Shown: positions 5,391 through 38,453 of the stretch, piece after piece
How positions within the stretch are numbered: the first letter of the stretch is position 1
Layout: each line of letters begins with the position of its first letter
Translations under genes and position numbers: made by a program
Source of the DNA: an uncultured Gammaproteobacteria bacterium
Lineage (GTDB): Bacteria > Patescibacteriota > Microgenomatia > 2-02-FULL-39-11
Direction: 5' to 3'
DNA: 64,000 nucleotides
Assembly: GCA_964354025.1 (NCBI GenBank)
Contig: CAYGXQ010000001.1
Coordinates: 70,567-134,566 of the forward strand
The notes under the pieces: generated by a model
The model's input: only the letters and a program-made list of their open reading frames with translations
The model's database searches: none
What the model was told of the DNA's origin: nothing

Positions 5391-6854
5391 TTATGTCTTA
5401 GTTCCATGCAGGAAGACTGCCTGCCAGGGTTGGTAATTGGAATAATAAGTGGTTTGAATAAGCGTTTCTCCGTTTCTGGTGACTTTATAATCAAAGTTAA
5501 CTTTAGCGCCCCAGGCTTTCCAGTCAACCTGTTTAACCGTACCTACCGGCAGGGTCGGGTCATCCTGATTAAGGTCCGGCGGCGGCGGATTCGAGGAAGT
5601 GATGACCGATTTGGAGATTTCCGCCTTTCTGCCATCAGCGGTTCCGTATATTTCAAAGGTTAAAGCGAAATTACCCGGATCCGGTTTGGCCTGGATAAGA
5701 ATATAATTTGGGGTGTCATTTTTGAATTTCAGGTCATAGCTGGGAGCAAAAACAGTGGCGTCAATCCCTGGCGGGGTACCCTGTTCGTAATAGCTAACCC
5801 GGTAGGAATGGGCATGGCGTTCAGTAACCGGCAGTCCGGCATTTAAGATGGCCCGAAAAAGTGTGGTGGAAACCTGGCAGACGCCGCCGCCGTCTCCCAG
5901 GACTGTCCGGCCGTCTTTGATGATGTAAGCCGGCTGGAAACCGGTACTCCCTGAGACGTCTCCCAAGGTGTCGTTAAAAGAAAAAATTTCGCCCGGCGGC
6001 AGCAGATGGCCGTTGATCCGGGAAGCCGCCAGGACGATATTGTGAATCCGGCCGGGGATGGAACCGGCATATTTGGAAGTGCCGACGCTTAAAAGTTCTT
6101 TGACGCCAAAATTATTGGAATCCTCAGTCGTAATCTGCGGCCTGACGGTTTTCACCGGCAGGTCAATGGCGATATTTTGAGGCTCAAACTGCGTTTGATT
6201 ATTTAAGGTATCGATATAGGAAGCAATCATCTGTTTCGTCTGCTGCTGGTCCAATTGCCGGCCCGGTTTTGACATTTTGAAAACAGAGACTTTGCCTTTT
6301 TCAAACTGGAAGAGGGCATCTTCGGTCGGGATATCGATACTGGTGGCCATAGAGGAAACGGTATCGTCGATAAGACCGGTATCCATGCGAAGAACGCTGG
6401 TTAAGTTGATGCCGATGGTAGCCCCTTTCCATTTCTGGTATAAGTCTGAAAAAATATGGCCTGAGCGTCCGATAGAATAAGCCTGTGTAGCCGAAAGTTT
6501 GGCATCATAGGCGATATTCAAATTCCGGCCGGAGATAGTGGCGATTTTATCTTCAAAAACGAGAGTGAATTTCAGGAGGGCAAACGGCAGGTTTTTCCGG
6601 TTATAGTAATCTTCGACCTCGGCCGGAGTTTTTCCCCCGTATGAGATTTTATCCACTCTGACCCCGGGATAGATTTTTCCCTGAAAATTTTTTTCAAAAT
6701 AATAATAACCGCCAAAAACAAGAATAATTGTTAGAAACACTAAAATGAGAATCAGATAAAAAAGGTAAGCAATAAAAGAAAAGCGGCCGGCAGGCTTAAT
6801 ATCAGGCTTTTGTTCATGAAGATGGGTTTTGGCGGATTTCTTTTCCTTGACCAT
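5391..6854 (-). CDS. VanW family protein, N-terminal TM anchor
   Basis: GGGVCQVSTTLFRAILNAGLPVTERHAHSYRVSYY matches the conserved VanW core. Hydrophobic helix near the N-terminus. Confidence 0.7.
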   Translation of the reverse strand: MVKEKKSAKTHLHEQKPDIKPAGRFSFIAYLFYLILILVFLTIILVFGGYYYFEKNFQGKIYPGVRVDKISYGGKTPAEVEDYYNRKNLPFALLKFTLVFEDKIATISGRNLNIAYDAKLSATQAYSIGRSGHIFSDLYQKWKGATIGINLTSVLRMDTGLIDDTVSSMATSIDIPTEDALFQFEKGKVSVFKMSKPGRQLDQQQTKQMIASYIDTLNNQTQFEPQNIAIDLPVKTVRPQITTEDSNNFGVKELLSVGTSKYAGSIPGRIHNIVLAASRINGHLLPPGEIFSFNDTLGDVSGSTGFQPAYIIKDGRTVLGDGGGVCQVSTTLFRAILNAGLPVTERHAHSYRVSYYEQGTPPGIDATVFAPSYDLKFKNDTPNYILIQAKPDPGNFALTFEIYGTADGRKAEISKSVITSSNPPPPDLNQDDPTLPVGTVKQVDWKAWGAKVNFDYKVTRNGETLIQTTYYSNYQPWQAVFLHGTKT

Positions 6855-6885: not shown

Positions 6886-8484
6886 ATGAATAATAATACA
6901 CCTTCACCTTCGGGAGAAATCTTTTCCGGCGGCAACGTCAATAACGCTTCTTACCAGGAAGCATTAAACGTGACCCAGGACAACGAAGTGGCTCAAGCTC
7001 TGACTGACCAGCCGCAAGACCAACCGGGAGCGCAGGCAAACCCGAGTAATTCCGAAGGTTCAAGCGGTTTTCCCAATTATCCTTCCGGCAATCAGCCCAA
7101 TGTTCCATCGTCTGCCGAAGGCCCGCCGCCGTTTGTCGAGAATAACGCCAAGAAATTCCTGATTATCGGAGGAGTGATTGTTCTGCTTGTCATTTTCATC
7201 TTTCTGCTGTTTAAATTTCTCTCGGGCCGGTTTGCCAAACCGCCTGCACAGGCAAAAATCAATCTCACTTATTGGGGCCTTTGGGAGGAAGAGACAGTCA
7301 TCCGGCCGTTTATCGACGAATTCCAAAAGTCACATCCCAACATCACGGTTTCTTACAGCCGTCAGGACCCCAAACAATACCGGGAAAGACTGCAGGCGGC
7401 CATTTCCCGCGGTGAAGGCCCGGATCTTTTCCGCTTTCACAATACCTGGGTGCCGATGTTACTCGGAGAATTGGCGCCGATGCCCAAAACCGTTTATTCC
7501 GATAGCGACTTCGAAAAGATTTTTTATCCGGTGGCCGCTGAAAGTTTAAAAACCGGAGGCAATTTTTACGGGATACCTCTCATGATAGACGGTTTACTGC
7601 TTTTTTATAATGAAGACATATTAAAAAGCGCCAATGTTTCTGTCCCTGTCACCTGGGTTGATGTCCAAAACGCCGTCCCGAAATTGACCGTTAAGGAAGG
7701 TAACCGGATTGTCACTTCTGCCATTGCCCTGGGGACGGCTGAAAACATCGAACATTTCAGCGATATTTTGGGACTAATGATGTTGCAAAACGGGACCCAA
7801 CCGGTAAAATCCGTTTTCACCTGCACAGATCCGGCCAGCACCACCTGCGCGGTAGAAGCGCTTACCTTTTACCGCAAATTTGCCGAGACGCCAAATAATG
7901 CCTGGGATGCCACTTTGGAAAACTCCATTGTCGCTTTCGCCGGAGGGAAAGTGGCAATGATCCTTGCGCCCAGCTGGGAGGCGATTACCATCAAAAATCT
8001 CAGCCCCAATCTGAATTTCAAGACTGCCCAGGTACCGCAGCTTCCCTGTGACCGGACGCCCTGTCCGACGTTGAACTGGGCCAGTTTTTGGGTGGAAGGG
8101 GTTTCGGCAAAAAGCAAAAATCAGGAAGCGGCCTGGGAATTTTTGAAATATCTTTCTCAACCGGAAACGATGCAGAAAATGTATGCCGAGCAGGTGAAAC
8201 TGCGGCCGCTTTTCGGTGAACCTTACTCCCGGACGGATCTGGCCAAACTTTTGGCGGACAACGTTTACCTGGCGCCGCTTATTGTTTCGGCGCCGACGAT
8301 GAAATCCTTTTATCTTGCCTCGCGCACTTTTGACGGAGAAACCGGTTTGAATACTTCCCTTATCAATTACCTCAAAGACGCGGTTAATTCGCTTTCCCAA
8401 GGCACCAGTGTCGAGACGGCTTTAAAGACAGTCGACGATGGTTTCAAACAGGTGTTTGCCCGGTTTAACATCGGGGCCCCCTAG
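6886..8484 (+). CDS. membrane-anchored extracellular solute-binding protein (ABC transporter SBP family 1-like)
   Basis: Low-complexity N-terminal tail and one TM helix, then a domain with SBP-like layout (KINLTYWGLWEEE...). ATG 6886 with AAGG upstream; the track start at 6829 overlaps the convergent VanW gene. Confidence 0.55.
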   Translation: MNNNTPSPSGEIFSGGNVNNASYQEALNVTQDNEVAQALTDQPQDQPGAQANPSNSEGSSGFPNYPSGNQPNVPSSAEGPPPFVENNAKKFLIIGGVIVLLVIFIFLLFKFLSGRFAKPPAQAKINLTYWGLWEEETVIRPFIDEFQKSHPNITVSYSRQDPKQYRERLQAAISRGEGPDLFRFHNTWVPMLLGELAPMPKTVYSDSDFEKIFYPVAAESLKTGGNFYGIPLMIDGLLLFYNEDILKSANVSVPVTWVDVQNAVPKLTVKEGNRIVTSAIALGTAENIEHFSDILGLMMLQNGTQPVKSVFTCTDPASTTCAVEALTFYRKFAETPNNAWDATLENSIVAFAGGKVAMILAPSWEAITIKNLSPNLNFKTAQVPQLPCDRTPCPTLNWASFWVEGVSAKSKNQEAAWEFLKYLSQPETMQKMYAEQVKLRPLFGEPYSRTDLAKLLADNVYLAPLIVSAPTMKSFYLASRTFDGETGLNTSLINYLKDAVNSLSQGTSVETALKTVDDGFKQVFARFNIGAP

Positions 8485-8597: not shown

Positions 8598-9572
8598 ATG
8601 CCGCGACCACTTGAAAAAGCGATCATGAAAACTCTCATTTATGCTGATCTTTTTGATTATCCATTAACTAAGGAGGAGATTTGGAGAAGGTTGATAAAAT
8701 TACAAATTACAAATGATAAATTACAAATTAAATTAAAAAAATTAATAAATTCAATATTATTTGGGAAAAAAGAGAAATATTATTATTTGGTAGGGAGAGA
8801 GGAAATTATTCAATTGCGGAAAAGAAGGGAGAAATATTCGGAAGAAAAAGTAAAGATAGCCAGGCGGATTGCTAAACTTCTTAAATTTATTCCATTTGTT
8901 AAATTGGTCGGCTTGACCGGAGCGGTGGCCGCAGGAAACGCCGATGAAGATGATGATATCGATTTACTGATTATTACTTCGGGGAATTTGTTGTGGACGA
9001 CGCGTCTATTAGTTACTTTATCAGTTGATCTGATGGGACTTCGGCGAAGACCTGATGATAAAAAAGTGAAAAACAAAATCTGTTTAAATATGTTTATAGA
9101 TGAAAATTATTTGGCAATTGGTAAAGATGAAAGGGATTTGTTTACCGCTTACGAAATCACTCAGATGAAACCGCTGTTTGAAAAAAACCAGATATACAAG
9201 AGATTTATAAAAGCAAATGATTGGGTGGGAAAATATTTACCTAACGCTTTCAATGAACTAAGTACTTGTCCCATTGTCATCCCGACCGACCACAAGCGTG
9301 TAAACCACTTGTGGGAGTGGAGGGATCTTCCATATTCCGGAAGTTGGAAGATTCCTCCCCGATGGCCATCGGGACTCGGAATGACACTTTTTCGCTTGCT
9401 GGAAATACCAAGCAAGCGACTACAGCTTATATATATGAAAAAACGGCGCACGACCGAGAAAATCAAAACCGGAGTAATCCGATTTCACCCGAGGGATATC
9501 AGAAAGGAAATAATGAAACGGTTTGAGACGAGAGCCAAATCCCCCCTTGACAAGGTTTTTTTCACTGAGTAA
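8598..9572 (+). CDS. nucleotidyltransferase-domain protein (Pol beta superfamily) carrying two in-frame repeat insertions
   Basis: GLTGAVAAGNADEDDDIDLLII fits the GS-x(n)-DxD NTase motif. Residues KLQITNDKLQIKLKK are coded by the ttacaaattacaaat repeat (8697-8753). Residues CPIVIPTDHKRVNHLWEWRDL...LGMT are coded by a family-1 structured repeat (9276-9386). Confidence 0.55.
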   Translation: MPRPLEKAIMKTLIYADLFDYPLTKEEIWRRLIKLQITNDKLQIKLKKLINSILFGKKEKYYYLVGREEIIQLRKRREKYSEEKVKIARRIAKLLKFIPFVKLVGLTGAVAAGNADEDDDIDLLIITSGNLLWTTRLLVTLSVDLMGLRRRPDDKKVKNKICLNMFIDENYLAIGKDERDLFTAYEITQMKPLFEKNQIYKRFIKANDWVGKYLPNAFNELSTCPIVIPTDHKRVNHLWEWRDLPYSGSWKIPPRWPSGLGMTLFRLLEIPSKRLQLIYMKKRRTTEKIKTGVIRFHPRDIRKEIMKRFETRAKSPLDKVFFTE

Positions 9573-11848: not shown

Positions 11849-12238
11849 TCACCATGAATTTATAATTGGAGTAACAGGAGATTTTATATTTTGTTGGAAA
11901 AAAAGAGATTTTTCTGATAAAAACGCGTATATTATAAACATATCAAGAAGTAGCGGAATAATTAAGAACAATGAGAAAGAGAAGATAAATGACAGGATAT
12001 TACCGATAGTGGTAAGAGTAATAGTTACTACTCCTGCGTACCAACTCCATTTTTTATGTCTTCTGATTGCAGAACCCAGGAAAAAAGAATAAATTCCTAA
12101 AATTAGTGCTATAAAACCCTGCCAGATTTGGCTGAGACTATCTACTTGACCACCACTAAAAAGTAATGGAAACAATACCATTACAATAAAAGAGAAAATA
12201 AATATCGGAGCTACAATTATAAACAGTAAAAAATACAC
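11849..12238 (-). CDS. small polytopic membrane protein, hypothetical
   Basis: 129 aa, about four hydrophobic helices. The predicted start is a GTG inside the flanking palindrome, so the true start is uncertain. Confidence 0.35.
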   Translation of the reverse strand: MYFLLFIIVAPIFIFSFIVMVLFPLLFSGGQVDSLSQIWQGFIALILGIYSFFLGSAIRRHKKWSWYAGVVTITLTTIGNILSFIFSFSLFLIIPLLLDMFIIYAFLSEKSLFFQQNIKSPVTPIINSW

Positions 12239-13008
12239 ACCAGGTGTGTATTAGCTTGACATATACGGGAAACTGATATAAATTGTAGTCATGCCGTACC
12301 GTAAGACCGTATTTGCTTGCGGAGAATATTACCACATTTACAACAGAGGCGTTGCTTATCAGCCGATTTATAAAAATAAAAGGGATTATGAAAGATTTTT
12401 ATTAACGCTTTCATATTACCGATTTCGGGACTGCCCGGTCAGACTTTCAAAATTATTGCTGACTCCTAAAGAAATCAGAGACGATATATTATCAGCCTTA
12501 GCTAAAGACAATAGTAAAAGAATAGAAATTCTTGCATATTGTCTTATGCCAAATCATTTTCATTTGCTTATTCAGCAAATCAAAGAAGGTGGAATATCAA
12601 AATATCTGCGTCAGTCAATAAATAGTTATGCAAAATACTTTAATACGAAATACAAAAGAGTAGGATCTCTTTTTCAGGATATGTTTAAGGCTGTCCGGAT
12701 AGAATCAGATGAGCAGCTTATACATGTTTCGCGATATATTCACCTTAATCCACTCGTTTCCTATTTGGTCAATCGAGAGGAACTACCCGAGTATCCTTGG
12801 TCATCACTGCAATCATATTTGGGAAAATCTGACTCTGATTTGGTAGTCGCGGAAACTGTTTTGGCCAATTTTAAAAACAAAAAGGAGTATATGCAATTTA
12901 TACTTGATCAGGAAGATTACGGAAAAAAGTTAGAACATATTAAACATCTTATGCTTGACGGAACATAATAATCCGTATGTGCAAACGTAATACACACCTG
13001 GTGTGTAT
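12233..13008 (+). mobile_element. HUH Y1 transposase gene (RAYT/IS200-like) flanked by inverted copies of a 19-bp palindrome
   Basis: atacacaccAGGtgtgtat at 12233-12251 and its reverse complement atacacaccTGGtgtgtat at 12990-13008 bracket the CDS. Confidence 0.7.
12291..12968 (+). CDS. REP-associated tyrosine transposase-like HUH endonuclease (Y1 transposase fold)
   Basis: HUH motif NHFHLLIQ and catalytic Tyr context SRYIHLNPL (compare RAYT YIHYNP). Own promoter TTGACA 12256-12261, ATAAAT about 12278-12283. Confidence 0.75.
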   Translation: MPYRKTVFACGEYYHIYNRGVAYQPIYKNKRDYERFLLTLSYYRFRDCPVRLSKLLLTPKEIRDDILSALAKDNSKRIEILAYCLMPNHFHLLIQQIKEGGISKYLRQSINSYAKYFNTKYKRVGSLFQDMFKAVRIESDEQLIHVSRYIHLNPLVSYLVNREELPEYPWSSLQSYLGKSDSDLVVAETVLANFKNKKEYMQFILDQEDYGKKLEHIKHLMLDGT

Positions 13009-14933: not shown

Positions 14934-15311
14934 TTAAGTGACCAGAAAAATAATTTTTAAACAGGCGATCAGGAACAGAAAAGAAACTACCGTCCCTGAA
15001 ATAACCAGAAGATAAGCGGCGGTTTTCCTAGTTTCAAAGATGCCGGCCGCCAGAAAAAAATTGAGGGAAAAAAAGATGATAGAAAAAAGAAACGGGATAA
15101 AAATGCCGTAAGGGGAAGTAAGCTGCTCTACGCCTCTGGGGAGAGAGTAAAAAAGCGGCAATTGCGGCGGGAGTTTGTTCCATTTGAAGATGATGGCGAT
15201 CAGAAAAACCGCGATAATCCCCAAAAAGATCCTGATTAAATTTTCCGCCAGTTTATCTTTTAATAATACTTTAATCTTTTCTTTCATATCAGCGGATGAG
15301 AAGCAGGTCAT
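14934..15311 (-). CDS. small membrane protein, hypothetical
   Basis: 125 aa, three hydrophobic helices, co-directional with the GT genes. Confidence 0.4.
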   Translation of the reverse strand: MTCFSSADMKEKIKVLLKDKLAENLIRIFLGIIAVFLIAIIFKWNKLPPQLPLFYSLPRGVEQLTSPYGIFIPFLFSIIFFSLNFFLAAGIFETRKTAAYLLVISGTVVSFLFLIACLKIIFLVT

Positions 15312-16587
15312 AAGTCGCGTTATCTTTCATAAGATAAGTTTTTGAAGGCGGAGGAGGAAAATCCGCCCTGGAAACAGCCGGAAAAACGACGTTGACGCCG
15401 ATATAATCAGGAACGGTGATGCTATTGGGATTATAGATAAATACTTTTTCCGGGAATTTATAATAAAAAGCGGATTCCAAAAAAGCAATCGGAGTTTGGG
15501 TATAAACAAAATCAGACGCTTCAGCATTTTTGTTTATTTCCGAAAAAGCGCTCTTGAAATCGGTTTTGCGGTGACCCGGGACCAGGGCGATATCGATAAC
15601 AATGACTAAAAGAAGAAAAGCAGCGGCGGTAAAATTTCTCAATAATTTGTTTTTAATGCTCCAGATGCCCAAAGAGATGCCGAAGATTTCAAAAACAGTG
15701 ATAAAAATAAAATAGCGGTTGACATAAATCGGCCGGCGAAGATATGAATAGCCCAAAACTCCAAATAAGGTAAAAAATATCGGCGTCAAAAATAACAAAG
15801 CCTGTTTCTTATTTTGCCGAAATCCTATCCAGAAGAAAACAAGGATGATGACTGAAAGCCAAAAAGTCAAAGGCCACCAGTTGCCCGGCGTGCCTTCGAA
15901 GTTGGTAAAAAGATTGCCCAAAACTGATTTAACCAGTTGCAGGTCAACCGGGAAGATCCAGGAATCTTTTGAACGTATAAATTGATTTATGAGGACCGGC
16001 AGCCAGGGAAGGAAGAAAAGCAGCGGTTTGGCGGTATTGATTATCAGCCTGCGGTGGTTTTGTTTGGTCAGAAAATAATAAATGATGAAAGATACGGGGA
16101 TAAGGATAAAAAATGACTGGGTGTAAAGTCCCAGGACAGTCGCAACTAAATACCCTTTCCACTCTTTTTTGTACCAGAAATATAAGGAACAAACGGTAAA
16201 CAGGGCATAAAAAGAATACATCCGGATTTCAAAAGCGTAATAGAGAAGCATCGGGTTGAAAAAAGTGAAAGCGGCAACATATAGGGCAAAGCGGCGGGAA
16301 AAGATTTTCTCCGCCAGAAGCGAGGCCACATAAACACTGATAACGAAAGCCAGAAAAGAAAGCAGTCTCAGTCCTACGTCTGATTTGCCGACGATTTGCA
16401 TCCACAAATGCAAAATCAGGTAATAAAAAGGAGGGTTAAAATCATGGGCGGTATTGCTGATGATCTTTATCAGATCCGGTTTAGCCATAAAATATGAAAA
16501 AGCCTCGTCCCGCCAAATTGACTGGATCAGATAAAAAAGCGGTGTTTGGTAGAAAATATAATTAACAATATTCATTTTGTATTCCAA
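15289..16587 (-). CDS. GT-C fold glycosyltransferase (ArnT/PMT family 39/83-like)
   Basis: Polytopic; early DEAFSY loop motif characteristic of ArnT/PMT-type GT-C enzymes. Confidence 0.6.
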   Translation of the reverse strand: MEYKMNIVNYIFYQTPLFYLIQSIWRDEAFSYFMAKPDLIKIISNTAHDFNPPFYYLILHLWMQIVGKSDVGLRLLSFLAFVISVYVASLLAEKIFSRRFALYVAAFTFFNPMLLYYAFEIRMYSFYALFTVCSLYFWYKKEWKGYLVATVLGLYTQSFFILIPVSFIIYYFLTKQNHRRLIINTAKPLLFFLPWLPVLINQFIRSKDSWIFPVDLQLVKSVLGNLFTNFEGTPGNWWPLTFWLSVIILVFFWIGFRQNKKQALLFLTPIFFTLFGVLGYSYLRRPIYVNRYFIFITVFEIFGISLGIWSIKNKLLRNFTAAAFLLLVIVIDIALVPGHRKTDFKSAFSEINKNAEASDFVYTQTPIAFLESAFYYKFPEKVFIYNPNSITVPDYIGVNVVFPAVSRADFPPPPSKTYLMKDNATYDLLLIR

Positions 16588-16590
16588 CGG

Positions 16591-16652
16591 GATCCCTCGA
16601 TCCGCCAGCTGGCGGACTCGGGATGACAGAAAAGATTTAAATCTTTTCTGTC
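16591..16652. repeat. composite structured repeat: 16-bp perfect palindrome plus family-1 end module plus hairpin
   Basis: gatccctcga, then tccgccagctggcgga (16601-16616; the identical 16-mer is at 9601-9616), then ctcgggatgacag, then hairpin gacagaaaagatttaaatcttttctgtc. Confidence 0.6.
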
Positions 16653-18121
16653 ACTTTATATTCTAACCTTTTCCCCAAAAGAAGTCTGGTGTGCGCATCA
16701 AGGGCGGGAAGAGAGGAAAAAAGGAAAGAGACAATCGGCAGTAGAATCCACTGGAAAAGAAGAAGCGGAGTAGTGGAAATAGAAGTGTGAGCCGGCCTTT
16801 TCGGCCGGGATTTGGCATCCAGAATAATCAAGACCAAAAGAAAAGTAGTAGTAATCGTCAAAATCAAACCGGACATTTTCGGTAAATTATGCCCGAGGGT
16901 AGTTCTTGAAAAAACCGGATTAACCAAAGCCGGAATAGAAGCTCCCAACGTCAGGATGAAAAAAGAAGTCGGCCAAAAAAGATGGGTTTCGACAACGTAT
17001 AAGACGCGGTACAGCTTCGGCAGGATGGGGATATGTGAAGAGGTGAAAAACTTCTTCAAAGCATAAGGGACATCGGTAATTCCCCAAGCCCAGCGTTTTT
17101 CCTGTTCATAACGGGATTTGAAAGCATTTAAAAGAGTATTGCTGTTGACGGCATCGCGGGAAATCGTCAGATAAATAGGCAGCGTTTTTACTTTTTCACC
17201 TAAGGTAAAGAAAGCCTGAAGGAAAATATGCCAGTCTTCCGGAATGATATCCGTATCCCAATAACCGATTTTCTCAAGCATTTGTAAAGATAGAGAATAA
17301 GTGGAAATTTGGATTAAACTGCCAGGACGGGCAAGAGAAGCCAGGCGGGTAATGCTGGAAATGGTTGCCTGGATTCTGATGGGAAGAGGCACTTCCCAAA
17401 AATTGCTGTAAAGAAGAACCGGTGCCCAGTAGAAATGGTAGTAACGCTCTCCGTCAGTCAAAAACATAAAAGTCAGGTAGGAAAAATATTTTGCCGGGAA
17501 AAGAGAGTCGGCATCGCTTGAGGTGACGGTCACAAAATCCGGATTAATCTTTTTCTTTCTGATCACTTGGCTTAAATATTTGGCCGCCCAGGCGGCATTA
17601 CTGGCTTTGCCGGCAATTTCCCCGATTTTGGCCTGGTGGTATGTTGCCTCGATTAAGCCGAATTTACCTTTGAACTCGGCGATTAAAGCCTTTGCCCGTT
17701 CATGGGCCTGTTCACCCTCCCTTTCTTCCATGGCCAAAATGATGAAAATACGTTTGACGGGAAAATCCTGATTTACCAGAAATTCAAGGGTTTTTTTGAC
17801 TTTTTCCGTTGTTTCCTTGTAATTAGTGATGATGACAGCGTGATATATTTGGGCGTAATCGGGTAATTTTTTCGACTTTACAGCCCAATCAACCTGCGAA
17901 AGTTTGCGGAGCTTAAGGTAGGAAACGGTTGACATGATGGTCATGGATAGGGACTTGTAAAAGAAATAAACATCAAAACTGAGGATGAAATAGGCAACGA
18001 GGGCCGGGTGAAAAACAGAAAGCCAGACAGGTAAAGTGATGATCAGCCAGGTAGTGACCGGAATGATCATTTCAAAAAAACGCTCGATGAGATGCGGGTA
18101 ACGGTTAAAAAAGGCACGCAT
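16637..18121 (-). CDS. family 2 glycosyltransferase, cellulose/chitin/hyaluronan-synthase-like processive type
   Basis: DADS...QEKRWAWG (QxxRW) motif, cytoplasmic GT-A domain between N- and C-terminal TM bundles. Confidence 0.7.
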   Translation of the reverse strand: MRAFFNRYPHLIERFFEMIIPVTTWLIITLPVWLSVFHPALVAYFILSFDVYFFYKSLSMTIMSTVSYLKLRKLSQVDWAVKSKKLPDYAQIYHAVIITNYKETTEKVKKTLEFLVNQDFPVKRIFIILAMEEREGEQAHERAKALIAEFKGKFGLIEATYHQAKIGEIAGKASNAAWAAKYLSQVIRKKKINPDFVTVTSSDADSLFPAKYFSYLTFMFLTDGERYYHFYWAPVLLYSNFWEVPLPIRIQATISSITRLASLARPGSLIQISTYSLSLQMLEKIGYWDTDIIPEDWHIFLQAFFTLGEKVKTLPIYLTISRDAVNSNTLLNAFKSRYEQEKRWAWGITDVPYALKKFFTSSHIPILPKLYRVLYVVETHLFWPTSFFILTLGASIPALVNPVFSRTTLGHNLPKMSGLILTITTTFLLVLIILDAKSRPKRPAHTSISTTPLLLFQWILLPIVSFLFSSLPALDAHTRLLLGKRLEYKVTEKI

Positions 18122-18169
18122 ATTTTACGGGATTAATCCTTCGGCTACGCTCAGGATGAATCTATTGTA

Positions 18170-18990: not shown

Positions 18991-19060
18991 TGTCATTGCG
19001 AGCAAAGCGAAGCAATCCCATCCGAGATTGCCACGGCTACTTCGTAGCCTCGCAATGACA
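18991..19060. repeat. family-1 structured repeat with 12-bp perfect terminal inverted repeats
   Basis: tgtcattgcgag ... ctcgcaatgaca. The internal segment cgaagcgaagcaatcccatccgagattgc occurs inverted in the copy at 32483-32557. Confidence 0.7.
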
Positions 19061-20861: not shown

Positions 20862-20902
20862 AATTTCATTTTACTTTTTTTGGTGGTAGAATGGAACGAT
20901 GT

Positions 20903-20950
20903 AGTAGCAGACTTTAGTCTGCGTAAGCGCGAACTGAAGTTCGCTATTCC
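20903..20950. repeat. family-2 double-hairpin repeat
   Basis: tagcagacTTTAgtctgcg then agcgcgaacTGAAgttcgct, bounded by aatagc / gctattcc. Related copies at 33490, 38404 and 56392. Confidence 0.65.
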
Positions 20951-20973: not shown

Positions 20974-21966
20974 ATGTTGTCTGTAGAATTAATAACATTG
21001 TTAATTATTGTAATTTTCTCCTTGCTTATTTTTACCTTTTCCTTGAAAAAATGGATTACGGATTTGGCTGAGAAGCAAAAACCATCCGAGGATTTGCTTA
21101 AAATCATCCAGATGCTTCAGTCAGGCAGTAAAGAAGACCGGAAAGTTTTACTTGAGAGTTTACAAAGCAACACCCAGGCACTCAATCAGCGGTTGGATAA
21201 CGCCGCTCGGGTAATCGGCCAAGTGCAGAAAAATATCGGCGAGATGAGCGAAATCGGCCGGGGGATGAAGGAATTGCAGGAATTTCTCAAAAGCCCGAAA
21301 CTGCGCGGCAATATCGGCGAGCAGATTCTCAAAGAACTGCTTGGTCAAATGCTGCCCAAACAGTCATTCCACTTGCAATATGCTTTCAAATCCGGAGCCA
21401 TTGTTGACGCGGCGATCAAAACGGGCAGCGGTCTCATTCCGGTCGACTCCAAATTCCCGATGGAGAATTTCCGAAAGCTTTTGTCTGCAAAAGAAGACGC
21501 GGAAAGAAAAACGGTTCTTAAAGATTTTGAAAAAGATGTCAAAAAGCACATTGAAGACATTTCTAAAAAATATATTCTGACAGAGGAAGGAACAATGGAC
21601 TACGCCCTGATGTACATCCCCAGCGAAGCTGTTTATTACGAAGTTGTCAATGACCCTGCGCTTTTTGAATACAGCAGCGCTAAAAGGGTCCTGCCGGTTT
21701 CACCGACGACTTTTTACGCATACCTCAAGGCGATCCTCATGTCATTTGAAGGGCAGAAAATTGAAGCCAAAGCGAAGCAAATTTTACAAACGATCAGGGC
21801 GACTCAAAAAGATTATGAGAAGCTAGCCGATAATCTAGCGGTTTTAGGCAAACACTTAACTAACGCCTATAACCAGATGAATAATGTCACTAACAGTTTT
21901 ACCCTATTGGGACAAAAGCTATCCTCGACAAAAACATTAGAATTGAAAGAGAAGAAAGAACTTTAA
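20974..21966 (+). CDS. rmuC: DNA recombination protein RmuC
   Basis: N-terminal TM, coiled coil, KLRGNIGEQILKELLGQ (compare RmuC LRGNWGEQVLE). Confidence 0.75.
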   Translation: MLSVELITLLIIVIFSLLIFTFSLKKWITDLAEKQKPSEDLLKIIQMLQSGSKEDRKVLLESLQSNTQALNQRLDNAARVIGQVQKNIGEMSEIGRGMKELQEFLKSPKLRGNIGEQILKELLGQMLPKQSFHLQYAFKSGAIVDAAIKTGSGLIPVDSKFPMENFRKLLSAKEDAERKTVLKDFEKDVKKHIEDISKKYILTEEGTMDYALMYIPSEAVYYEVVNDPALFEYSSAKRVLPVSPTTFYAYLKAILMSFEGQKIEAKAKQILQTIRATQKDYEKLADNLAVLGKHLTNAYNQMNNVTNSFTLLGQKLSSTKTLELKEKKEL

Positions 21967-21968
21967 TC

Positions 21969-22056
21969 TGTCATCCCGACCGATCCCGACTTAGTCGGGA
22001 GAGTGGAGGGATCTTCCCAGAGGCGGAAGATTCCTCGACTTCGCTCGGAATGACAG
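21969..22056. repeat. family-1 structured repeat (full-length copy)
   Basis: tgtcatcccgac ... ggagggatcttccc ... ggaagattcctcgacttcgctcggaatgacag. Ends are inverted repeats with nested hairpins. Confidence 0.7.
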
Positions 22057-22066
22057 AGTTAGAAAT

Positions 22067-25063
22067 ATGGATCAAAAGAAGTTAAATAAGGAACAGCTTG
22101 AGGCGATCCGTCACTGGAAAGGCCCGCTTCTGGTGATTGCCGGCGCGGGGACGGGTAAAACAACGGTTATAACCGAGCGGATCAAATGGCTGATTGCCGA
22201 AGGCCTGGCCAAACCAGCCGAAATTCTGGCTTTGACTTTTACCGATAAAGCGGCTCGGGAAATGGAAGAACGGGTTGACCGGGCGCTTCCTTACGGTTAT
22301 ACCCAAATGTGGATTACCACTTTTCATTCATTTGGGGAGCGGGTTTTACGGCAGGAAGCGATCCAGATAGGTTTGAATCCGGGATACCGGCTCATGGCTG
22401 AGGCGGAGAGTATCATTTTTTTCCGCAAAAACCTCTTTAAATTTAACCTGAATTATTTCCGGCCAATGGGAAATCCGAACAAGTTTATTTCCGGTATGCT
22501 GCAGCATTTTACCAGGTTTAAAGATGAAGACATATCACCTAAAGAATATTTTAATTGGGCGAAATTAAACAATGAAACAACCCGCCAGCCGGCGAGGCAG
22601 GTGAAACAATTGAACAATGAGGAAAAAACTATTGAGAGTGAAAAATATATGGAACTGTCTGATGCTTTTCAAAAGTATGAAGAACTGAAAGTCAAAGAAG
22701 GTTTGATGGATTTTTCCGACCTGATAACTAACACTCTAAATCTTTTCCGGTTAAGGAAAAATATTTTGAAAAATTATCAGGAGCAGTTTAAGTATGTCTT
22801 GATTGATGAATTCCAGGACACAAATTTTGCCCAAAATGAACTGGCGGTTCTTCTGGCCGGAAACAGAAAAAACATAACGGTCGTCGGGGACGATGATCAG
22901 GCGATTTACCGATGGCGCGGCGCGGCTGTTTCCAATATTATCCAATTCCGGCAAAAATTCCCGGAGGCAAAGCCGGTGGTTTTGACGAAAAATTACCGTT
23001 CCACCACTGAAATTCTTGACCGGTCATATGACCTTATCCAAAACAACAATCCAGACCGGTTGGAAGTAAAAGAGAAAATTAATAAAAAACTAGAAAGCCA
23101 AAGAGGGATAAAAGGAGAAAAAATAGAATTGATTTATGAAAAGAGAGTGGAAGATGAAGCGGAAAAAGTAGCTAAACAAATTACAAATTATAAATTACAA
23201 ATTACAAATGACGAAGGGAAAGAATTATACAGTTGGAAAGATTTTGCCATTTTGGTTCGGGCCAACAGTCAGGCAGAACCGTTTGCCAGGGCACTATCCC
23301 GGGCCGGTATCCCTCACCAGTTTTTAGGACCGGGCATGCTTTTTAGGCAGTCTGAAGTCAAAGACCTGATCGCTTACCTTAAATTACTCGACGACTTCAC
23401 TGATTCGGTGGCCTTTTTCCGGGTTGTCACAATGCCGGTTTTTGGGATAAACACCCGGGATATTTATGCCGTCAATAATTTTGCCAAAAGAGTCGGGCTT
23501 TCCTTATTTGAAGCAGTTGAGGTGGTGGTGGCGTTTTTCTTAGGCGATGAAGGACATTGGAGCCGGATGAAAAATTACCAGAATTACCTGCCGTATACAG
23601 GCGAAACTACCAAAGAAAAACTGACCAAGATAATGAAAATGATCAACCGGCATTTGGATTTGGCCAGAAAAGAAACCGCCGGTCAGGTTCTCTACTACTT
23701 TCTGGAAGACAGCGGCATTTTGAAAGAACTGGTTGAGTACAAGACGGTCAAAGAGGAAAAGACCGCCTTAAATATCTCGAAATTTTTCGACAAGCTGAAG
23801 ACTTTTGAGACGGAACACGAAGAAGCAAATGTAGCGGCGGTGGTTGATTGGATTGAAATGGCGATGGAACTGGGTGAAAGTCCCCTGGCGGCGGATACTG
23901 ACTGGTCACAAAATGACGCGGTAAATATCCTGACAGTCCATTCGGCTAAAGGATTGGAGTTTCCGGTGGTCTTTTTAGTCAATCTGGTTAACCAGCGTTT
24001 TCCGACAGTTGAGCGGCATGAACAAATTCCCATCCCTGATGAGCTGGTGAAGGAGATATTGCCGGAAGGGGATTATCATCTGGAGGAGGAAAGACGGCTG
24101 TTTTACGTAGGTATGACCAGGGCCCGCGACCGGCTGATTTTGACCGCGGCCAATTTCTACGGAGAGGGCAAAAGAGAAAGGAAGATCTCGCAGTTTGTGA
24201 TGGAAACGTTGGGAGAGAAGAACATCAATAATTTAACAATTCAACCCTTCGACTTCGCTCAGGGTAAGCAATTGACTCTTTTAGAATGGAAAAAAACTGA
24301 AGAATTACCGGCCAAAACTATTAAACAACCCATCGAATATCTTTCTTATTCCCAAATTGAGAGTTTCACGACCTGTCCGCTGCAGTATAAATACCGCTAT
24401 ATCATCAGAATTCCGGCCCCTCCTTCGGCCGCCGGCTCTTTCGGAACATCCATCCATCTGACTTTGCAGAAATTTTACGAGCGGGTTAAAAGAGGCGAGC
24501 GGCCGCAAAAAGAGGATTTATTGCAGATATTGGATGAGGTCTGGCTGCCGGTCGGTTACGGTTCGAAACAATATGAAGAGAAAATGAAGACCAGAGGCCG
24601 CGACATGCTTCAGGCTTTTTTTGAGAAATTTTACGATCCCGACAAAAAGCCAAAAAGCCTGGAGCAGATTTTTAAGATAAAGCTGACACCGACTCTTAAA
24701 ATCGGCGGCAAAATCGACCGGGTGGATGAGACGCCTGACGGAAAGTTGGAAATTATCGATTACAAAACCGGCAAACGTCCCACCGATAAGGCCATCGCCG
24801 AAAACCTGCAGATGACGGTTTACGCGCTGGCCGCCTGCGACTCCGGTATTTACAACAGACGGCCGGAAGAAGTGGTTCTTTCTTTTTATTTTTTTGACGC
24901 CCGGGAGAAAGTAACTTCGACTAGGACAAAAGAACAGTTGGAAGAAGCCAAGAAAAAACTCCTGGAAAAAGCCCAAGATATTGCATCAAGCGATTTCTCT
25001 CCAAAAGTGGGCAAATGGTGCGATTTTTGCGATTTCCGCCTCATCTGTGAAGCCTGGCAATAA
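22067..25063 (+). CDS. UvrD/PcrA-family helicase fused to a C-terminal PD-(D/E)xK (RecB/Cas4-type) nuclease domain with Cys cluster
   Basis: Walker A GAGTGKTT, DEFQDT, VTLTKNYRS, C-terminal YSQIESFTTCPLQYKYRY...IDYKTGK...CDFCDFRLICEAW. Two in-frame repeat insertions at 23175-23212 and 24243-24264. Confidence 0.85.
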   Translation: MDQKKLNKEQLEAIRHWKGPLLVIAGAGTGKTTVITERIKWLIAEGLAKPAEILALTFTDKAAREMEERVDRALPYGYTQMWITTFHSFGERVLRQEAIQIGLNPGYRLMAEAESIIFFRKNLFKFNLNYFRPMGNPNKFISGMLQHFTRFKDEDISPKEYFNWAKLNNETTRQPARQVKQLNNEEKTIESEKYMELSDAFQKYEELKVKEGLMDFSDLITNTLNLFRLRKNILKNYQEQFKYVLIDEFQDTNFAQNELAVLLAGNRKNITVVGDDDQAIYRWRGAAVSNIIQFRQKFPEAKPVVLTKNYRSTTEILDRSYDLIQNNNPDRLEVKEKINKKLESQRGIKGEKIELIYEKRVEDEAEKVAKQITNYKLQITNDEGKELYSWKDFAILVRANSQAEPFARALSRAGIPHQFLGPGMLFRQSEVKDLIAYLKLLDDFTDSVAFFRVVTMPVFGINTRDIYAVNNFAKRVGLSLFEAVEVVVAFFLGDEGHWSRMKNYQNYLPYTGETTKEKLTKIMKMINRHLDLARKETAGQVLYYFLEDSGILKELVEYKTVKEEKTALNISKFFDKLKTFETEHEEANVAAVVDWIEMAMELGESPLAADTDWSQNDAVNILTVHSAKGLEFPVVFLVNLVNQRFPTVERHEQIPIPDELVKEILPEGDYHLEEERRLFYVGMTRARDRLILTAANFYGEGKRERKISQFVMETLGEKNINNLTIQPFDFAQGKQLTLLEWKKTEELPAKTIKQPIEYLSYSQIESFTTCPLQYKYRYIIRIPAPPSAAGSFGTSIHLTLQKFYERVKRGERPQKEDLLQILDEVWLPVGYGSKQYEEKMKTRGRDMLQAFFEKFYDPDKKPKSLEQIFKIKLTPTLKIGGKIDRVDETPDGKLEIIDYKTGKRPTDKAIAENLQMTVYALAACDSGIYNRRPEEVVLSFYFFDAREKVTSTRTKEQLEEAKKKLLEKAQDIASSDFSPKVGKWCDFCDFRLICEAWQ

Positions 25064-27191: not shown

Positions 27192-28511
27192 ATGGATAAA
27201 AAGAAGATTTTGATTACCGCAGTTATAGTATTAATGGCAATTATCGCCATCGTTGCTATTTTTCTCTCCAAAAAAAATCAGCCGGGACAACCAGTCAGCT
27301 GCAATCTGCAAAATTGTCCTTCCGGCTGCTGCGCGGATGACAAATGCCAGACCCAGGGATCAATTTTTGCCGGCTACTTATGTTTGGGTGCCAATAACTG
27401 GCAGACGCCTGGTCGGCAAGTGGTGACTGGTGCGCCAAAAGAAGTCGCGGCAGAAGTGAAAAAGAATGCCGAAACGGATAAAATCTCTCCCAATCCTGCT
27501 TCGCAAAGAATAGAAATGGCCAAAAAAACGCTTGACTGGTTAAATATGCAGAAAGATGAAAAGGGCTTGTATTCCCTTTACCAAATCGTCCGTGCGAACG
27601 GTGAAGTGGTACCTTATATTACCGACAGCCGGGAAGTGATTGACGTCGTCCTGGCAAGATATGCATACTGGAAAAAGACAAAAGACACAAAGACACTGGA
27701 TCTGTTAAAACAGGATCTGGATGTACTAGGTGATGAGAAAAAACTGCCGCAGTTGATGCCTGAATTTTGGCATTGCAAGCTATTTTACGAAATCTGGAAT
27801 GATAAGCTTATGCCTGGGGATTTGAAAGATAAAGCCAAAGCCAGTTGCGCAAGAAGTATGACCTCCGGTTATCCTGATGTGGACCTTAAATCGATTTTAT
27901 CGGATACAATAACGGTGACTCCTTTTCCGGAAAAATCAATTCAGGAACTTGAGTCAGCCTTAAATAAACCGGAGAAGAATATTACTTTATCACCGCAGGA
28001 GGAGGAAGAACTCCAGCAGAAATATCCGAAATATGCCGCTTACGTTTCCGATTTCCTTAATAAATACCAATGGGAAAAAAAGAACCAGGATCTGGAAGCG
28101 GCCAAAACGTTTTTCAGCTACGCTTTAGACGCCTACAAGAGAGCGGAAGAGGCGGCAGTAATACCGCAAAAAGAATGCCTGTTGGGGATTGCTTCGCTTG
28201 ATTTTTTCAAAACGACTGCCGATGACAAATACCGCTCGTTTGCGCAAAAATTATGGGAAAAAATCTCAATCTCACCAAAAGGATCGCTTTTCTCACAAGC
28301 TACCTGCGCTATTTTTACCAATGAGATAAATACAATCACCCCTGATAAAAAATACGGTGATTTCCTGAAAAACTTGACTGATGAGATTATAAAAAATAAC
28401 CATGAAATAAATTCCGGCGCTTTCTTTTATAAAAGCAATGGAAGTATTATCAAAGAGATCAGGGATAATTGTCTCTTGGTGAAGGTTTTATCGGATTCTG
28501 ATAGTGAGTAG
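27192..28511 (+). CDS. TM-anchored extracytoplasmic protein, cassette component A2, with extra Cys-rich N-terminal segment
   Basis: Paralogous to A1 (see motifs there) plus CNLQNCPSGCCADDKCQTQG near the membrane anchor. Confidence 0.6.
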   Translation: MDKKKILITAVIVLMAIIAIVAIFLSKKNQPGQPVSCNLQNCPSGCCADDKCQTQGSIFAGYLCLGANNWQTPGRQVVTGAPKEVAAEVKKNAETDKISPNPASQRIEMAKKTLDWLNMQKDEKGLYSLYQIVRANGEVVPYITDSREVIDVVLARYAYWKKTKDTKTLDLLKQDLDVLGDEKKLPQLMPEFWHCKLFYEIWNDKLMPGDLKDKAKASCARSMTSGYPDVDLKSILSDTITVTPFPEKSIQELESALNKPEKNITLSPQEEEELQQKYPKYAAYVSDFLNKYQWEKKNQDLEAAKTFFSYALDAYKRAEEAAVIPQKECLLGIASLDFFKTTADDKYRSFAQKLWEKISISPKGSLFSQATCAIFTNEINTITPDKKYGDFLKNLTDEIIKNNHEINSGAFFYKSNGSIIKEIRDNCLLVKVLSDSDSE

Positions 28512-30858
28512 TATGAAAAGATTTTTTTATACAATATTTCTTGCCATTATCCTTTTGGGGATTTTTTATTCCTTTAAAAATAGCGCATATGCTGTAGATT
28601 GTTCGATTCTCAGCTCAAATCCTGCTTGCGGTAAATGTGTTATAGATCCATGGTCTGGGAGTGGTGCTTGTATGAAACAGTGTAATCCTGGTGCGATTAC
28701 GTGTTCCGGTAAGGAAGATCTGAATTCCTGCTGGTGGAGATGTAATGCAGCTGAAGGGGGATGTGATAATCCCTACCAATGCTGTTATCCGCCGAGTCCC
28801 ACTCCGACTAATTCACCACCCTCCTGTAACAGCCTGACTGTCCAGCCGGTTACCGTGATGCCTGGAGAGTCGATTACCCTAAAAGCAAACGTCGGCGAAT
28901 TGAACGGCTCGGTTACGAAAGTGGATTTTTATTACGGATTAGTATCGGAAATAGACGGAGGGGCGGCGGTCAATCCTCCAGGCGGTAACTGGCATCCTTT
29001 AGGCAGTGTGTCATCCAGTCAACCGACAATCCCCTTTGCTCCTTTGGTCACGCCGAATGTTAAAACAGGTAAAAGTTGTGACCAGATTTGTCAGGGATAT
29101 CAGGGCAGGTCCTGTTTGTCAGTTGGTACTGATACCGGGGGAACAAACGGGAGCGTGACGAAATTTAATAGTACTGGGAGTGAAGACGGCAGTTGTGATT
29201 CACAAACGGGCGGATGGGCAAGAGAGAAATGCAATGTAGCGATGAATGCTCATGGACAAATGCCTTGCGACTGGACAAATTGCCGCTGTTCGGATTGGCC
29301 GACTTTAACTACATTTACGGATGTTTCTTGGACCGGAACTTTTCCGGGAACAGGAGGAGCCTATTATTTCATCGCCAATGTCTTTGACGCTCAGGGCCTG
29401 TTTTGTTCCGGCAATCCTAAAAAACCGGCTGACGTAAAAGGATGTTCAGCCTGTATGTTGCAAACAACCGTGGTGACGCCATCACCGACTCCCAGTGAGT
29501 CTCCGACGCCTTCAGCAACACCTACATCTACCCCTACTTCTACTCCTACCCCGACACCTCTTGGATGCGGCAATCCCTGCAGCCCGGACAATAACGAATG
29601 TCCCGAAGAATGTCCATTTTGTCCGGTAGATAATTCCTTTTGCGTCGGTCCAAGTTCCACGCCCACTCCCACCCAAGTTCCTTGTAACGGCCCCTGTACT
29701 AACAGCAATGAATGTGATATAAACTGTCCTCTTTGTTCAACTGATCATACCTGTAGGGTACCTTGTGGTGATCTGTGCACCAACAGCAACGAATGCGATC
29801 TGTCCTGTCCGATTTGTACGGCTGATAACAAATGTTTGGCAGCCAGTCCGACTCCCACTAAAGTCCCCTGTACCCAACCATGTACCAATAGCCTAGAATG
29901 CGATATCAACTGTCCTCTTTGTTCAACTGATCATACCTGTAGGGTACCTTGTGGTGATCTGTGCACCAACAGCAACGAATGCGATCTGTCCTGTCCGATT
30001 TGTACGGCTGATAACAAATGTTTGGCAGCCAGTCCGACACCGACAGCTACACCGATTCCTCCGACAGCTACACCGACAGCGACTGTCACTCCGACACCGG
30101 AGCCATACTGCCTTTGCGATAGTATGGAATATACAGGATCTCCGGTACCGGGTGGGACAATGAGTTTCACTACCTGGGGTAGGATACCGGATTATGCCCA
30201 CAATAATTCAGGCATCCAGAGTATGATTTATCGGGTTTGGAACGGAAGACCGGAATCGCAATCTGTGCCTCCGGATGCAGCCGGACCCGTCACTGTACCA
30301 GCCCAAGGTCCGGTAACCGTCGGTGCTGATTACCGGTATTCGACGACTTGGAATTGGCAAATTCCGAGTACCGTGCCGACTTCCGGTTATGTCGATTATT
30401 ATTTCAACGCGGAAATCAAGTGTGTCAGACCAAGATCGACAGCGGATAGCGGCAGTAATCTGGTTCAGGCAAACACGGCGGTGCTGGGTACAACCGAGGA
30501 AAAAAGTCCCGGCTTTTTTGCCTCCATTCTTCGTTTCTTCGGTTCTCTTTTAGGAATTTCTCCATCTGTGGTTACTCCTTCACCGCTAGTACCTACTCCT
30601 ACCTCCTCTGCCCGGCTTGTTCCGCTGGCCGCCGAAGCACTTTCGCCTACACCTACCCAGGTCATGCTTCCTCCTTCTCCCACAATGGGAATGGGAGGGT
30701 ATTGCGCCAGTACTGTTCTTGCACCATCAGGAGTCCATAGCGATCAACTAGGCACTTTTACTCCCAATTGCGCCTGTCCTACCCCAGCAATTATCAAAAC
30801 ATGTACCTGGACAGTCTTAAGAATATATTACGGTGATGATTGTGTGAAGACACCGTAA
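28504..30858 (+). CDS. large secreted Cys-rich modular surface protein, cassette component B2
   Basis: Signal peptide; N-terminal Cys-rich domain homologous to B1; Pro/Thr linkers; five CxxxxECxxxCPxC modules; C-terminal domain homologous to B1. Confidence 0.6.
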   Translation: MSSMKRFFYTIFLAIILLGIFYSFKNSAYAVDCSILSSNPACGKCVIDPWSGSGACMKQCNPGAITCSGKEDLNSCWWRCNAAEGGCDNPYQCCYPPSPTPTNSPPSCNSLTVQPVTVMPGESITLKANVGELNGSVTKVDFYYGLVSEIDGGAAVNPPGGNWHPLGSVSSSQPTIPFAPLVTPNVKTGKSCDQICQGYQGRSCLSVGTDTGGTNGSVTKFNSTGSEDGSCDSQTGGWAREKCNVAMNAHGQMPCDWTNCRCSDWPTLTTFTDVSWTGTFPGTGGAYYFIANVFDAQGLFCSGNPKKPADVKGCSACMLQTTVVTPSPTPSESPTPSATPTSTPTSTPTPTPLGCGNPCSPDNNECPEECPFCPVDNSFCVGPSSTPTPTQVPCNGPCTNSNECDINCPLCSTDHTCRVPCGDLCTNSNECDLSCPICTADNKCLAASPTPTKVPCTQPCTNSLECDINCPLCSTDHTCRVPCGDLCTNSNECDLSCPICTADNKCLAASPTPTATPIPPTATPTATVTPTPEPYCLCDSMEYTGSPVPGGTMSFTTWGRIPDYAHNNSGIQSMIYRVWNGRPESQSVPPDAAGPVTVPAQGPVTVGADYRYSTTWNWQIPSTVPTSGYVDYYFNAEIKCVRPRSTADSGSNLVQANTAVLGTTEEKSPGFFASILRFFGSLLGISPSVVTPSPLVPTPTSSARLVPLAAEALSPTPTQVMLPPSPTMGMGGYCASTVLAPSGVHSDQLGTFTPNCACPTPAIIKTCTWTVLRIYYGDDCVKTP
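29677..30048 (+). repeat. tandem direct duplication of a 186-bp unit (62 aa, two Cys modules) inside B2
   Basis: 29722-29852 is 100% identical to 29908-30038 (131 bp); the upstream parts of the units are about 80% identical. Confidence 0.85.
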
Positions 30859-33489: not shown

Positions 33490-33534
33490 GGAATAGCGCA
33501 CTTTAGTGCGCGCGCAGACTAAAGTCTGCTATTA
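33490..33534. repeat. family-2 double-hairpin repeat
   Basis: aatagcgcacTTTAgtgcgc gcgcagacTAAAgtctgctatt. Confidence 0.65.
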
Positions 33535-38371: not shown

Positions 38372-38403
38372 GATATAATGGATATCTATAATAGCATATT
38401 GTA

Positions 38404-38453
38404 ATAGCAGACTTTAGTCTGCGTAAAACGCGCAATAAATTGCGCTAATCCAA
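38404..38453. repeat. family-2 double-hairpin repeat
   Basis: taatagcagacTTTAgtctgcg taaaa cgcgcaaTAAattgcgc taatcc. Confidence 0.65.

Follow-up and report, generated by a model that had tools for sequence, protein, structure and literature searches.

Tail-to-tail hairpin repeats in opposite orientations in a candidate-phyla-radiation genome, and their probable kinship with tagged repeats served by GIY-YIG nucleases

Two short repeats in a 64-kb stretch of DNA (the window, by which we mean the whole of the stretch analysed) share 12-nt inverted ends, and when their plus strands are compared, the centre of one appears as the reverse complement of the centre of the other. An earlier note on this DNA had taken these copies, A at 18991-19060 and B beginning at 32483, as members of a family of modular mosaics (family 1 hereafter) whose central module flips orientation from copy to copy. 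Does such a module flip, and if it does not, what are these repeats and what may have placed them where they are?

Copies A and B compared

The shared inverted ends are real. Allowing at most one mismatch, the 12-mer TGTCATTGCGAG occurs at 6 sites in the window (18991 and 19049(-), 32483 and 32547(-), 9375(-) and 22044(-)) against 0.27 expected, a count reached in 0 of 100 shuffles of the window; matches at 59236 and 5559, both within coding sequence, were rejected as chance. Copy A occupies exactly the interval first reported for it, and copy B exists as well, although its true end lies at 32558, one base beyond the 32557 originally given. The reverse-complemented centre can also be seen on the plus strands, where a repeat finder pairs two 45-nt arms (18991-19035 and 32514-32558) that are 93% complementary, the arm comprising one terminal repeat together with the core.

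The flipping module itself is not borne out by alignment. The plus strand of A and the minus strand of B are colinear over their whole length, the 30-nt core and the two ends being identical, and their mean column identity is 85%, versus 75% for the two plus strands, which can be aligned only with gaps. Colinearity without module inversion is the very outcome that the earlier note had named as contrary to its own reading. In this alignment the second hairpin is the only difference between the copies (ggctacttcgtagcc in A, gtcccgatgtgacatcgggac in B); one unit, the loop and the inner stem are common to both, and the second hairpins read gctacgaagtagc and tcccgatgtcacatcggga. Because the ends are inverted repeats, an entire element lying in the opposite orientation mimics a flip of the centre only. 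The internal modules also run in reverse order, from end-core-hairpin-end in A to end-hairpin-core (reverse-complemented)-end on the plus strand of B, and hence copy B is the whole element in the other orientation. As far as sequence comparison can tell, A and B represent a single small palindromic repeat, a heterodimer, placed in opposite orientations at two loci. The pair reveals no new orientation-switching mechanism, and no special mechanism is needed to account for it.

Copy A, a tail-to-tail dimer, has the metG stop (19082, minus strand) on one side and the tatD start (18973, minus strand) on the other. Copy B (32483-32558) is this dimer turned the other way round, joined in frame, at the 3' end, to a CcdA/DsbD_TM ORF (31761-32582) that converges with a FemAB-like ORF (32591-33484).

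Unit anatomy and gene context in the window

Every copy in the window resolves into directional units of about 30-55 nt, each of which opens with an unpaired tag (TGTC or CGTC); then come a half-stem of 5 nt beginning AT, the trinucleotide GAG or GAC, an interior that varies, the complement of the half-stem and, last, a tail rich in C. The half-stem pairs present are ATTGC/GCAAT, ATTCC/GGAAT and ATCCC/GGGAT, and a variable mini-hairpin occupies the interior, in many cases as GCGNAGC or as a longer stem whose loop is GAA. When two units join at their tails and the tags face outward, the result is an element of 70-112 nt with apparent 12-nt terminal inverted repeats. The window holds 11 units, arranged as 4 dimers (8 of the 11 units) and 3 singles, all three of the latter on the minus strand. 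All 11 begin with TGTC or CGTC followed by AT, and a relaxed search for units returns 12 sites in the window versus 1.7 in shuffles.

Copies A and B each combine a simple unit, with the interior CRAAGCGAA, and a hairpin-bearing unit. The simple unit of A (18991-19019, plus strand) reads TGTC-ATTGC-GAG-CAAAGCGAA-GCAAT-CCC and its counterpart in B (32530-32558, minus strand) TGTC-ATTGT-GAG-CGAAGCGAA-GCAAT-CCC; the hairpin-bearing units are TGTC-ATTGC-GAG-GCTACGAAGTAGC-CGTG-GCAAT-CTC in A (19024-19060, minus strand) and TGTC-ATTGC-GAG-TCCCGATGTCACATCGGGA-CGCG-GCAAT-CTC in B (32483-32525, plus strand).

The other copies that had been reported exist too, two of them as heterodimers. One, at 9275-9386, lies in frame within ORF 8598-9572 and joins an ATCCC/GGGAT unit (9275-9329, plus strand) to an ATTCC/GGAAT unit (9348-9386, minus strand). 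The other, at 21969-22055, follows the rmuC stop (21966) and precedes the start of a UvrD-like gene (22067), its left unit (21969-22015, plus strand) having the stem ATCCC/GGGAT and its right unit (22027-22055, minus strand) ATTCC/GGAAT. In both, each unit is self-complementary, and the end-to-end pairing expected of terminal inverted repeats contains a mismatch, which favours the unit over the pair of ends as the selected structure. The three single units are found at 16589-16628 (TGTC-ATCCC-GAG-hairpin-GGGAT-CCC), in the gap that separates the stop of ORF 16637-18121 from the start of ORF 15289-16587, two minus-strand ORFs; at 49972-50024, a degenerate unit amid the convergent ORFs 47541-49856(+) and 50034-51476(-), with a copy of CCTGAGCGAAGTCGAAGGG on its plus strand; and at 56501-56562, where a CGTC tag (56559-56562) opens the unit CGTC-ATTCC-GAG...GGGAT-CTTCC, 7 nt past the stop of the minus-strand ORF 56569-58503. 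A palindrome with a 13-bp stem, TGACAGAAAAGAT-TTAA-ATCTTTTCTGTCA (16624-16653), adjoins the first of these singles and reuses its tag, and an A/G-rich stretch before the tag of the 21969 dimer (21941-21968) resembles the one at 16624-16653.

The description of the copies as modular mosaics stands. Three different closing stems are found among the units that carry the TCCCGA...TCGGGA hairpin, GAGTGGAGGGATCTTCC is common to two other units, and, as noted above, the second hairpins of A and B differ; mosaicism is real, in the sense that inner hairpins are common to units with different stems. The folding proposed in the earlier note, carried out on single-stranded DNA, gives strong structures for the dimers on both strands (-19.6 to -25.8 kcal/mol, z from -4 to -6.3; for copy A -19.6 kcal/mol on the plus and -21.1 on the minus strand, z about -6) and modest ones for single units taken alone (z from -0.05 to -2.9).

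Each of the seven window loci is either in the 3' end of a gene or at most about 22 nt from one; the genes around them are tandem or convergent, and in no case (0/7) divergent. This placement upholds one half of the suggestion that the copies might be REP or terminator elements at gene 3' ends: they are REP-like, and the terminator half fails, with no T tract and no terminator-like call at any window element. A scan of the whole window at Rfam gathering thresholds gave 0 matches.

Readthrough of the repeats had also been thought to add spurious peptides, LRFARNDN and VIASPDV, to gene ends, and this holds at one gene and not at the other. The first peptide is present, as MGLLRFARNDN, at the 5' and not the 3' end of a gene: it forms an N-terminal extension of the minus-strand tatD ORF when the start is taken at 19021. 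Since the TatD Pfam match begins at the ATG at 18973, the extension is an ORF-calling artefact. VIASPDV does lie at a gene end, in the tail of the CcdA/DsbD_TM-like ORF. That ORF has no stop before copy B, and therefore its 33-residue element-encoded tail (32483-32582) is really encoded; a public protein record (P0241, 273 aa) includes the tail, and homologues, 232-257 residues long when they carry no extra C-terminal domain, align to about 83-89% of the ORF, one of them reaching 92%. Similarly, the 112-nt dimer at 9275-9386 is read in frame, with no earlier stop, within a conserved nucleotidyltransferase-like ORF (8598-9572), whose conserved C-terminal block QLxYMxxRRTTEKIxxGxIRFHP resumes past the insert; in its two nearest homologues (BLASTP identities 68% and 63%) the roughly 30 residues at the insert point are lacking. 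For the annotation of this small candidate-phyla-radiation genome, the units thus yield both false N-terminal extensions and real repeat-encoded segments (the CcdA-like tail and the insert in the nucleotidyltransferase-like protein), and such units should be masked or flagged.

Several other repeats share the window. A second family, a GTAR-TAGC-palindrome (e.g. GTAATAGCAGACTTTAGTCTGCG), is present in 6 copies against 0.01 expected, at 20901-20950, 33490-33535, 38401-38423 and 56389-56465; its copies are often inverted pairs, its stems change by compensation (GCAGAC/GTCTGC, GCGCAC/GTGCGC, GCGGAC/GTCCGC, GCGAAC/GTTCGC), and it looks like a GTAG-type REP/REPIN family alongside the TGTC-type one. 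A third repeat, CCTGAGCGAAGTCGAAGGG, occurs 5 times against 0.01 expected (3100-3118, 18137-18155, 24245-24263, 49994-50012, 56412-56430) and has the GAG-CGAAG-YCGA core of family-1 units, but with a CCCT/AGGG stem and no TGTC tag. One of its copies lies in frame in the linker of a UvrD/PD-(D/E)XK ORF (22067-25063), where it encodes NLTIQPFDFAQGKQ; the linker of homologues is of similar length, and their alignment offers no clean empty site. In addition, we observed a tandem duplication of a 186-nt segment (29657-30028, 90% identical) inside ORF 28504-30858; three related segments of about 100 nt, some 870-1040 nt apart, upstream of small ORFs (40498-40604, 41370-41484, 42406-42435), beside which lie 14-nt periodic repeats (TTCCGTCCTCTGTA-like, 41520-41631); and a 36-nt inverted repeat (12233-12268 and 12973-13008, 86% complementary) around a 225-aa ORF (12291-12968), with the palindrome ACACACCWGGTGTGT in each arm.

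Spread across phyla and linkage to GIY-YIG genes

The element extends far beyond this genome, which, to go by the nearest homologues that carry a name, belongs to a Microgenomates/Gottesmanbacteria-like organism. Scanning species-representative genomes with the pattern TGTCATTGCGAG-N30-60-CTCRCAATGACA, we recovered at least 120 loci, and an element with identical ends is present in at least 120 such genomes from many phyla. Titles among the matches listed include Cyanobacteria, Bacteroidota (many of them Mucilaginibacter, complete genomes included), Chloroflexota, Nitrospirae, Planctomycetes, alpha-, gamma- and deltaproteobacteria, Clostridia, KSB1 and Omnitrophota, as well as the candidate-phyla-radiation groups Woesebacteria, Gottesmanbacteria, Saccharibacteria and Peribacteria; among these matches the TGTC-ATTGC subfamily keeps identical ends in groups as far apart as Cyanobacteria, Bacteroidota and the candidate phyla radiation. 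The listed loci contain 126 full elements built to one plan (end, variable part, CG(AA/TG/CG)GCAATC, loop, GATTGC..., variable part, end), and the inner stem CG(AA/TG/CG)GCAATC...GATTGC(TT/CA/CG)CG that they have in common was not imposed by the search pattern. Half units are also found alone, and both orientations are the rule for family copies in other genomes. In one locus, L034, on a contig labelled as a Klebsiella pneumoniae MAG, the element occurs three times within 6 kb (1565-1636, 5571-5642 and 7318-7389), one copy being reversed; such copies are unexpected for Klebsiella pneumoniae, and a binning error may explain them.

Within the listed loci, 7 stem types show covariation between the half-stem 5-mer and the complement downstream of it. 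A complementary 5-mer lies within 55 nt downstream for ATTGC in 289 of 327 cases, ATTCT in 7 of 8, ATTCC in 3 of 4, ATCCC in 3 of 3 and ATTTC in 2 of 2, compared with 42 of 445 in the upstream control. The interior between the half-stems measures 7-25 nt or more, mostly 7-19 nt, and the tails of 321 units include CTC (145), CCC (54), CGC (42) and CCA (only 10). The commonest interior, CGNAGCGAA, forms GCGNAGC with the preceding G, a sequence described as a stable DNA mini-hairpin motif (PMC13037366). It stands on the tagged strand in 79 of 321 and 76 of 254 units, the complement in only 2 and 1, and all four bases are found at its N position. Target-site duplications of k >= 3, sought as direct repeats at the element ends, were found in 0 of 127 cases in the listed loci, and the same analysis detected no flank preference there. 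With respect to genes, the elements in these loci lie between tandem (45), convergent (17) or divergent (10) ORFs, or inside crude ORFs (12).

When ORFs within 1.2 kb of the elements in the listed loci were clustered, one small family recurred, the GIY-YIG proteins; the other clusters were only common families, such as response regulators, and no transposase recurred among them. By tblastn, four GIY-YIG genes are present in 800 kb of listed loci, all four within 150 nt of an element and with units, partial units or full dimers on both sides, and none is found in the 64-kb window. Genes of this family lie at L017 1719-2009(-), L049 6618-6902(-), L057 5439-5723(-) and L176 1485-1769. The proteins are single-domain, about 95 aa long, and match PF01541 in Pfam; NCBIfam returned nothing specific for them, and their only solved relative is 1ZG2, a weak match (E = 0.003).

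An independent metagenome sample, scanned with an alignment of these GIY-YIG proteins, provided 80 further loci. A tagged unit lies within 300 nt of the GIY-YIG gene in 73 of the 80 and on both sides of it in 54, and 179 of the 233 units at these loci are of the ATTGC type. Units number 5.4 per kb in the 300 nt nearest the gene and about 0.2 per kb beyond 900 nt. In the prevailing arrangement the tags point outward on both sides, and, as this layout is the same in the dimers, the dimers look like a cassette with a short loop in place of the gene. Beside some GIY-YIG genes, a complete unit is preceded by two or three tandem copies of a unit's first 20-30 nt (tag, half-stem and part of the interior), as in L085 (20-90 and 660-760), L049 (6480-6600 and 6900-7000) and L176 (1385-1480); in L085 the far side shows a like repetition of the outer half-stems. 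At L176, ATTGC units directly flank the gene, and near-canonical NTS-like units (TGTCATTCCCGC...GCGGGAATCCAG) lie 340 nt away.

Explanations and comparison with known systems

A cassette in which recombination inverts, at its own locus, the interior enclosed by the 12-nt inverted ends, in line with the flipping module of the earlier note, can hardly be credited. With perfect inverted ends an interior flip and an inversion of the whole element do give the same sequence; however, A and B are separate loci 13 kb apart with different second hairpins, and not two states of one locus, no recombinase adjoins either of them (the neighbours are metG, tatD, a ccdA-like and a femAB-like gene), and both orientations are usual for the family elsewhere, L034 with its single reversed copy being an example. 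We also regard it as very unlikely that the repeats are classical MITEs, with the terminal inverted repeats serving as binding sites for the DDE transposase of a parent insertion sequence. Their TGT...ACA inverted ends of 12 nt, their small size and their multiple copies in both orientations would suit such an origin, but it is difficult to reconcile with the absence of target duplications (0/127 for k >= 3 in the listed loci), the existence of half units alone, heterodimers that pair better within a unit than between their ends, and the finding that the only recurrent small gene beside or between the units encodes a GIY-YIG nuclease, with no transposase family recurring.

Somewhat less improbable, though still unlikely, is a primary role in RNA, in which transcribed hairpins downstream of stop codons would terminate transcription, stabilise mRNA or serve as small RNAs, roles also proposed for REPs. 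The position of all seven window loci at or just past a gene 3' end, the strong folding of the dimers on both strands (z from -4 to -6.3), and the location of 62 of 72 classified copies in the listed loci between tandem or convergent ORFs are consistent with this idea. Against it, the window elements have no T tract, none is terminator-like and no Rfam family matches in the window; loops of the GNA/GCGNAGC kind are characteristic of mini-hairpins in DNA; the partner nuclease that has been characterised shows no binding to RNA (PMC11893778); and a sequence that stays identical from phylum to phylum suggests a DNA site that is mobile or recognised by a protein. An effect on RNA is likely to be a side effect rather than the origin of these repeats.

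The explanation that we prefer, and consider probable, is that family 1 belongs with the CGTC/TGTC-tagged REPs and Ssn-related-motif-type hairpin repeats and has a cognate Ssn-type GIY-YIG nuclease. Chenal et al. (2025) described the Neisseria NTS (CGTCATTCCCGCGMAVGCGGGAATCYRG) and kindred Ssn-related motifs (SRM) that flank ssnA, whose product SsnA is a GIY-YIG protein of 94 residues and a single domain. For SsnA to bind, the hairpin must be single-stranded DNA; the protein cuts upstream of the hairpin on one strand and acts on neither duplex DNA nor RNA, and the NTS-ssnA-NTS layout resembles an insertion sequence (PMC11893778). Established here are the anatomy of the units, the covariation of their stems, the strand-specific GNA loops, the absence of target duplications, the presence in many phyla and the tight flanking of GIY-YIG genes in other genomes. 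A mechanism can be suggested by joining the anatomy and the gene association to the published biochemistry of this related subfamily. By analogy with PMC11893778, a unit would fold on single-stranded DNA, and the cognate nuclease would bind the hairpin together with its tag and nick just upstream, on that strand only. The dimers may then be non-autonomous, MITE- or REPIN-like derivatives of unit-ssn-unit cassettes, which the nuclease could spread or maintain through a single-strand route, and the effects on neighbouring genes (mRNA hairpins, protein tails and in-frame inserts) would be by-products.

The window adds a subfamily that the published SRM pattern misses and that has the same tight linkage to a small GIY-YIG gene across many phyla. 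This bears on what mobilises CGTC-type REPs, and it widens the set of candidate pairs of nuclease and recognition site for single-stranded-DNA tools. A bolder proposal, which we advance tentatively and think possible rather than probable, is that the TGTC-ATTGC subfamily is the most cosmopolitan partner of Ssn-type GIY-YIG nucleases and that its dimers are deletion derivatives of a mobile unit-ssn-unit cassette. If it were true, a GIY-YIG single-strand nuclease would be the long-missing mobilising enzyme of CGTC-type REPs, acting through a transposition route distinct from those of DDE and HUH enzymes and moving between phyla.

Literature searches with family-1 DNA strings and repeat-encoded peptides, and for GIY-YIG together with MITE, returned nothing relevant. 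Modular MITEs such as pneumococcal BOX and Neisseria Correia/NEMIS are also small and modular, with inverted ends, and lie beside or within transcripts, but family 1 has neither target duplications nor a parent IS, and its ends are halves of hairpin units. With REPIN/RAYT systems and BIMEs it shares the joining of two inverted hairpin units into a longer hairpin, a probably non-autonomous character, the lack of target duplication, an associated gene flanked by units and mosaic arrays; in contrast to REPIN/RAYT, the tag is TGTC rather than GTAG and the flanked gene encodes a GIY-YIG nuclease rather than an HUH/Y1 transposase. The CGTC-tagged REP superfamily of Di Nocera et al. (2013) comes closer. 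Its members, which include Neisseria dRS3 and the Rickettsia RPEs (RPE-4/6), often have the tag TGTC, have stems starting with AT, form mostly inverted dimers, lie downstream of coding regions with some copies intragenic, and are stated to have no dedicated transposase (PMC3733652). Family 1 agrees with them in the CGTC/TGTC tag, stems that start with A-T and T-A pairs, inverted pairs, post-coding location, in-frame intragenic copies and no association with a tyrosine transposase, and differs in having a 5-bp stem, an inner hairpin and a CTC/CCC tail where the four families described have an 8-9-bp stem, a 4-5-nt loop and a CCA tail; moreover, the phyla listed in PMC3733652 do not include the candidate phyla radiation.

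The resemblance to SRM/NTS is similarly extensive. Both consist of directional units with an unpaired (C/T)GTC tag, then AT, a hairpin and an AATC(Y) tail, both exist in hundreds of copies with a wide phyletic spread, and both lie on either side of a single-domain GIY-YIG gene of about 95 aa (for family 1 in other genomes, the window having no ssn gene). The HGTC tag followed by W-Y that marks SRM is found in 11 of 11 window units. A hairpin right after the tag, with compensatory stem changes, is a further shared feature (7 stem types in the listed loci, the window heterodimers being self-consistent within each unit). On the other hand, family-1 units have a 5-bp closing stem around a variable inner hairpin instead of the published 8-bp stem with a 4-nt loop, and they are mostly tail-to-tail dimers. 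The published SRM pattern, HGTCWYN(0-2)YYVSBRHN(0-5)WNVSBRGN(0-2)RNCYNB, finds 0 family-1 units in the window, where its one match (0.16 expected) is unrelated and inside a gene, and it matches only 4 of the 80 GIY-YIG loci and 8 of the 120 genome loci listed. Because neither this pattern nor the CGTC-family geometry is fitted, we file family 1 as belonging to a known kind and not as literal SRM: to judge from its sequence features, it is a subfamily of the tagged hairpin repeats, set apart from literal SRM by the pattern mismatch and by the geometry of stem and loop.
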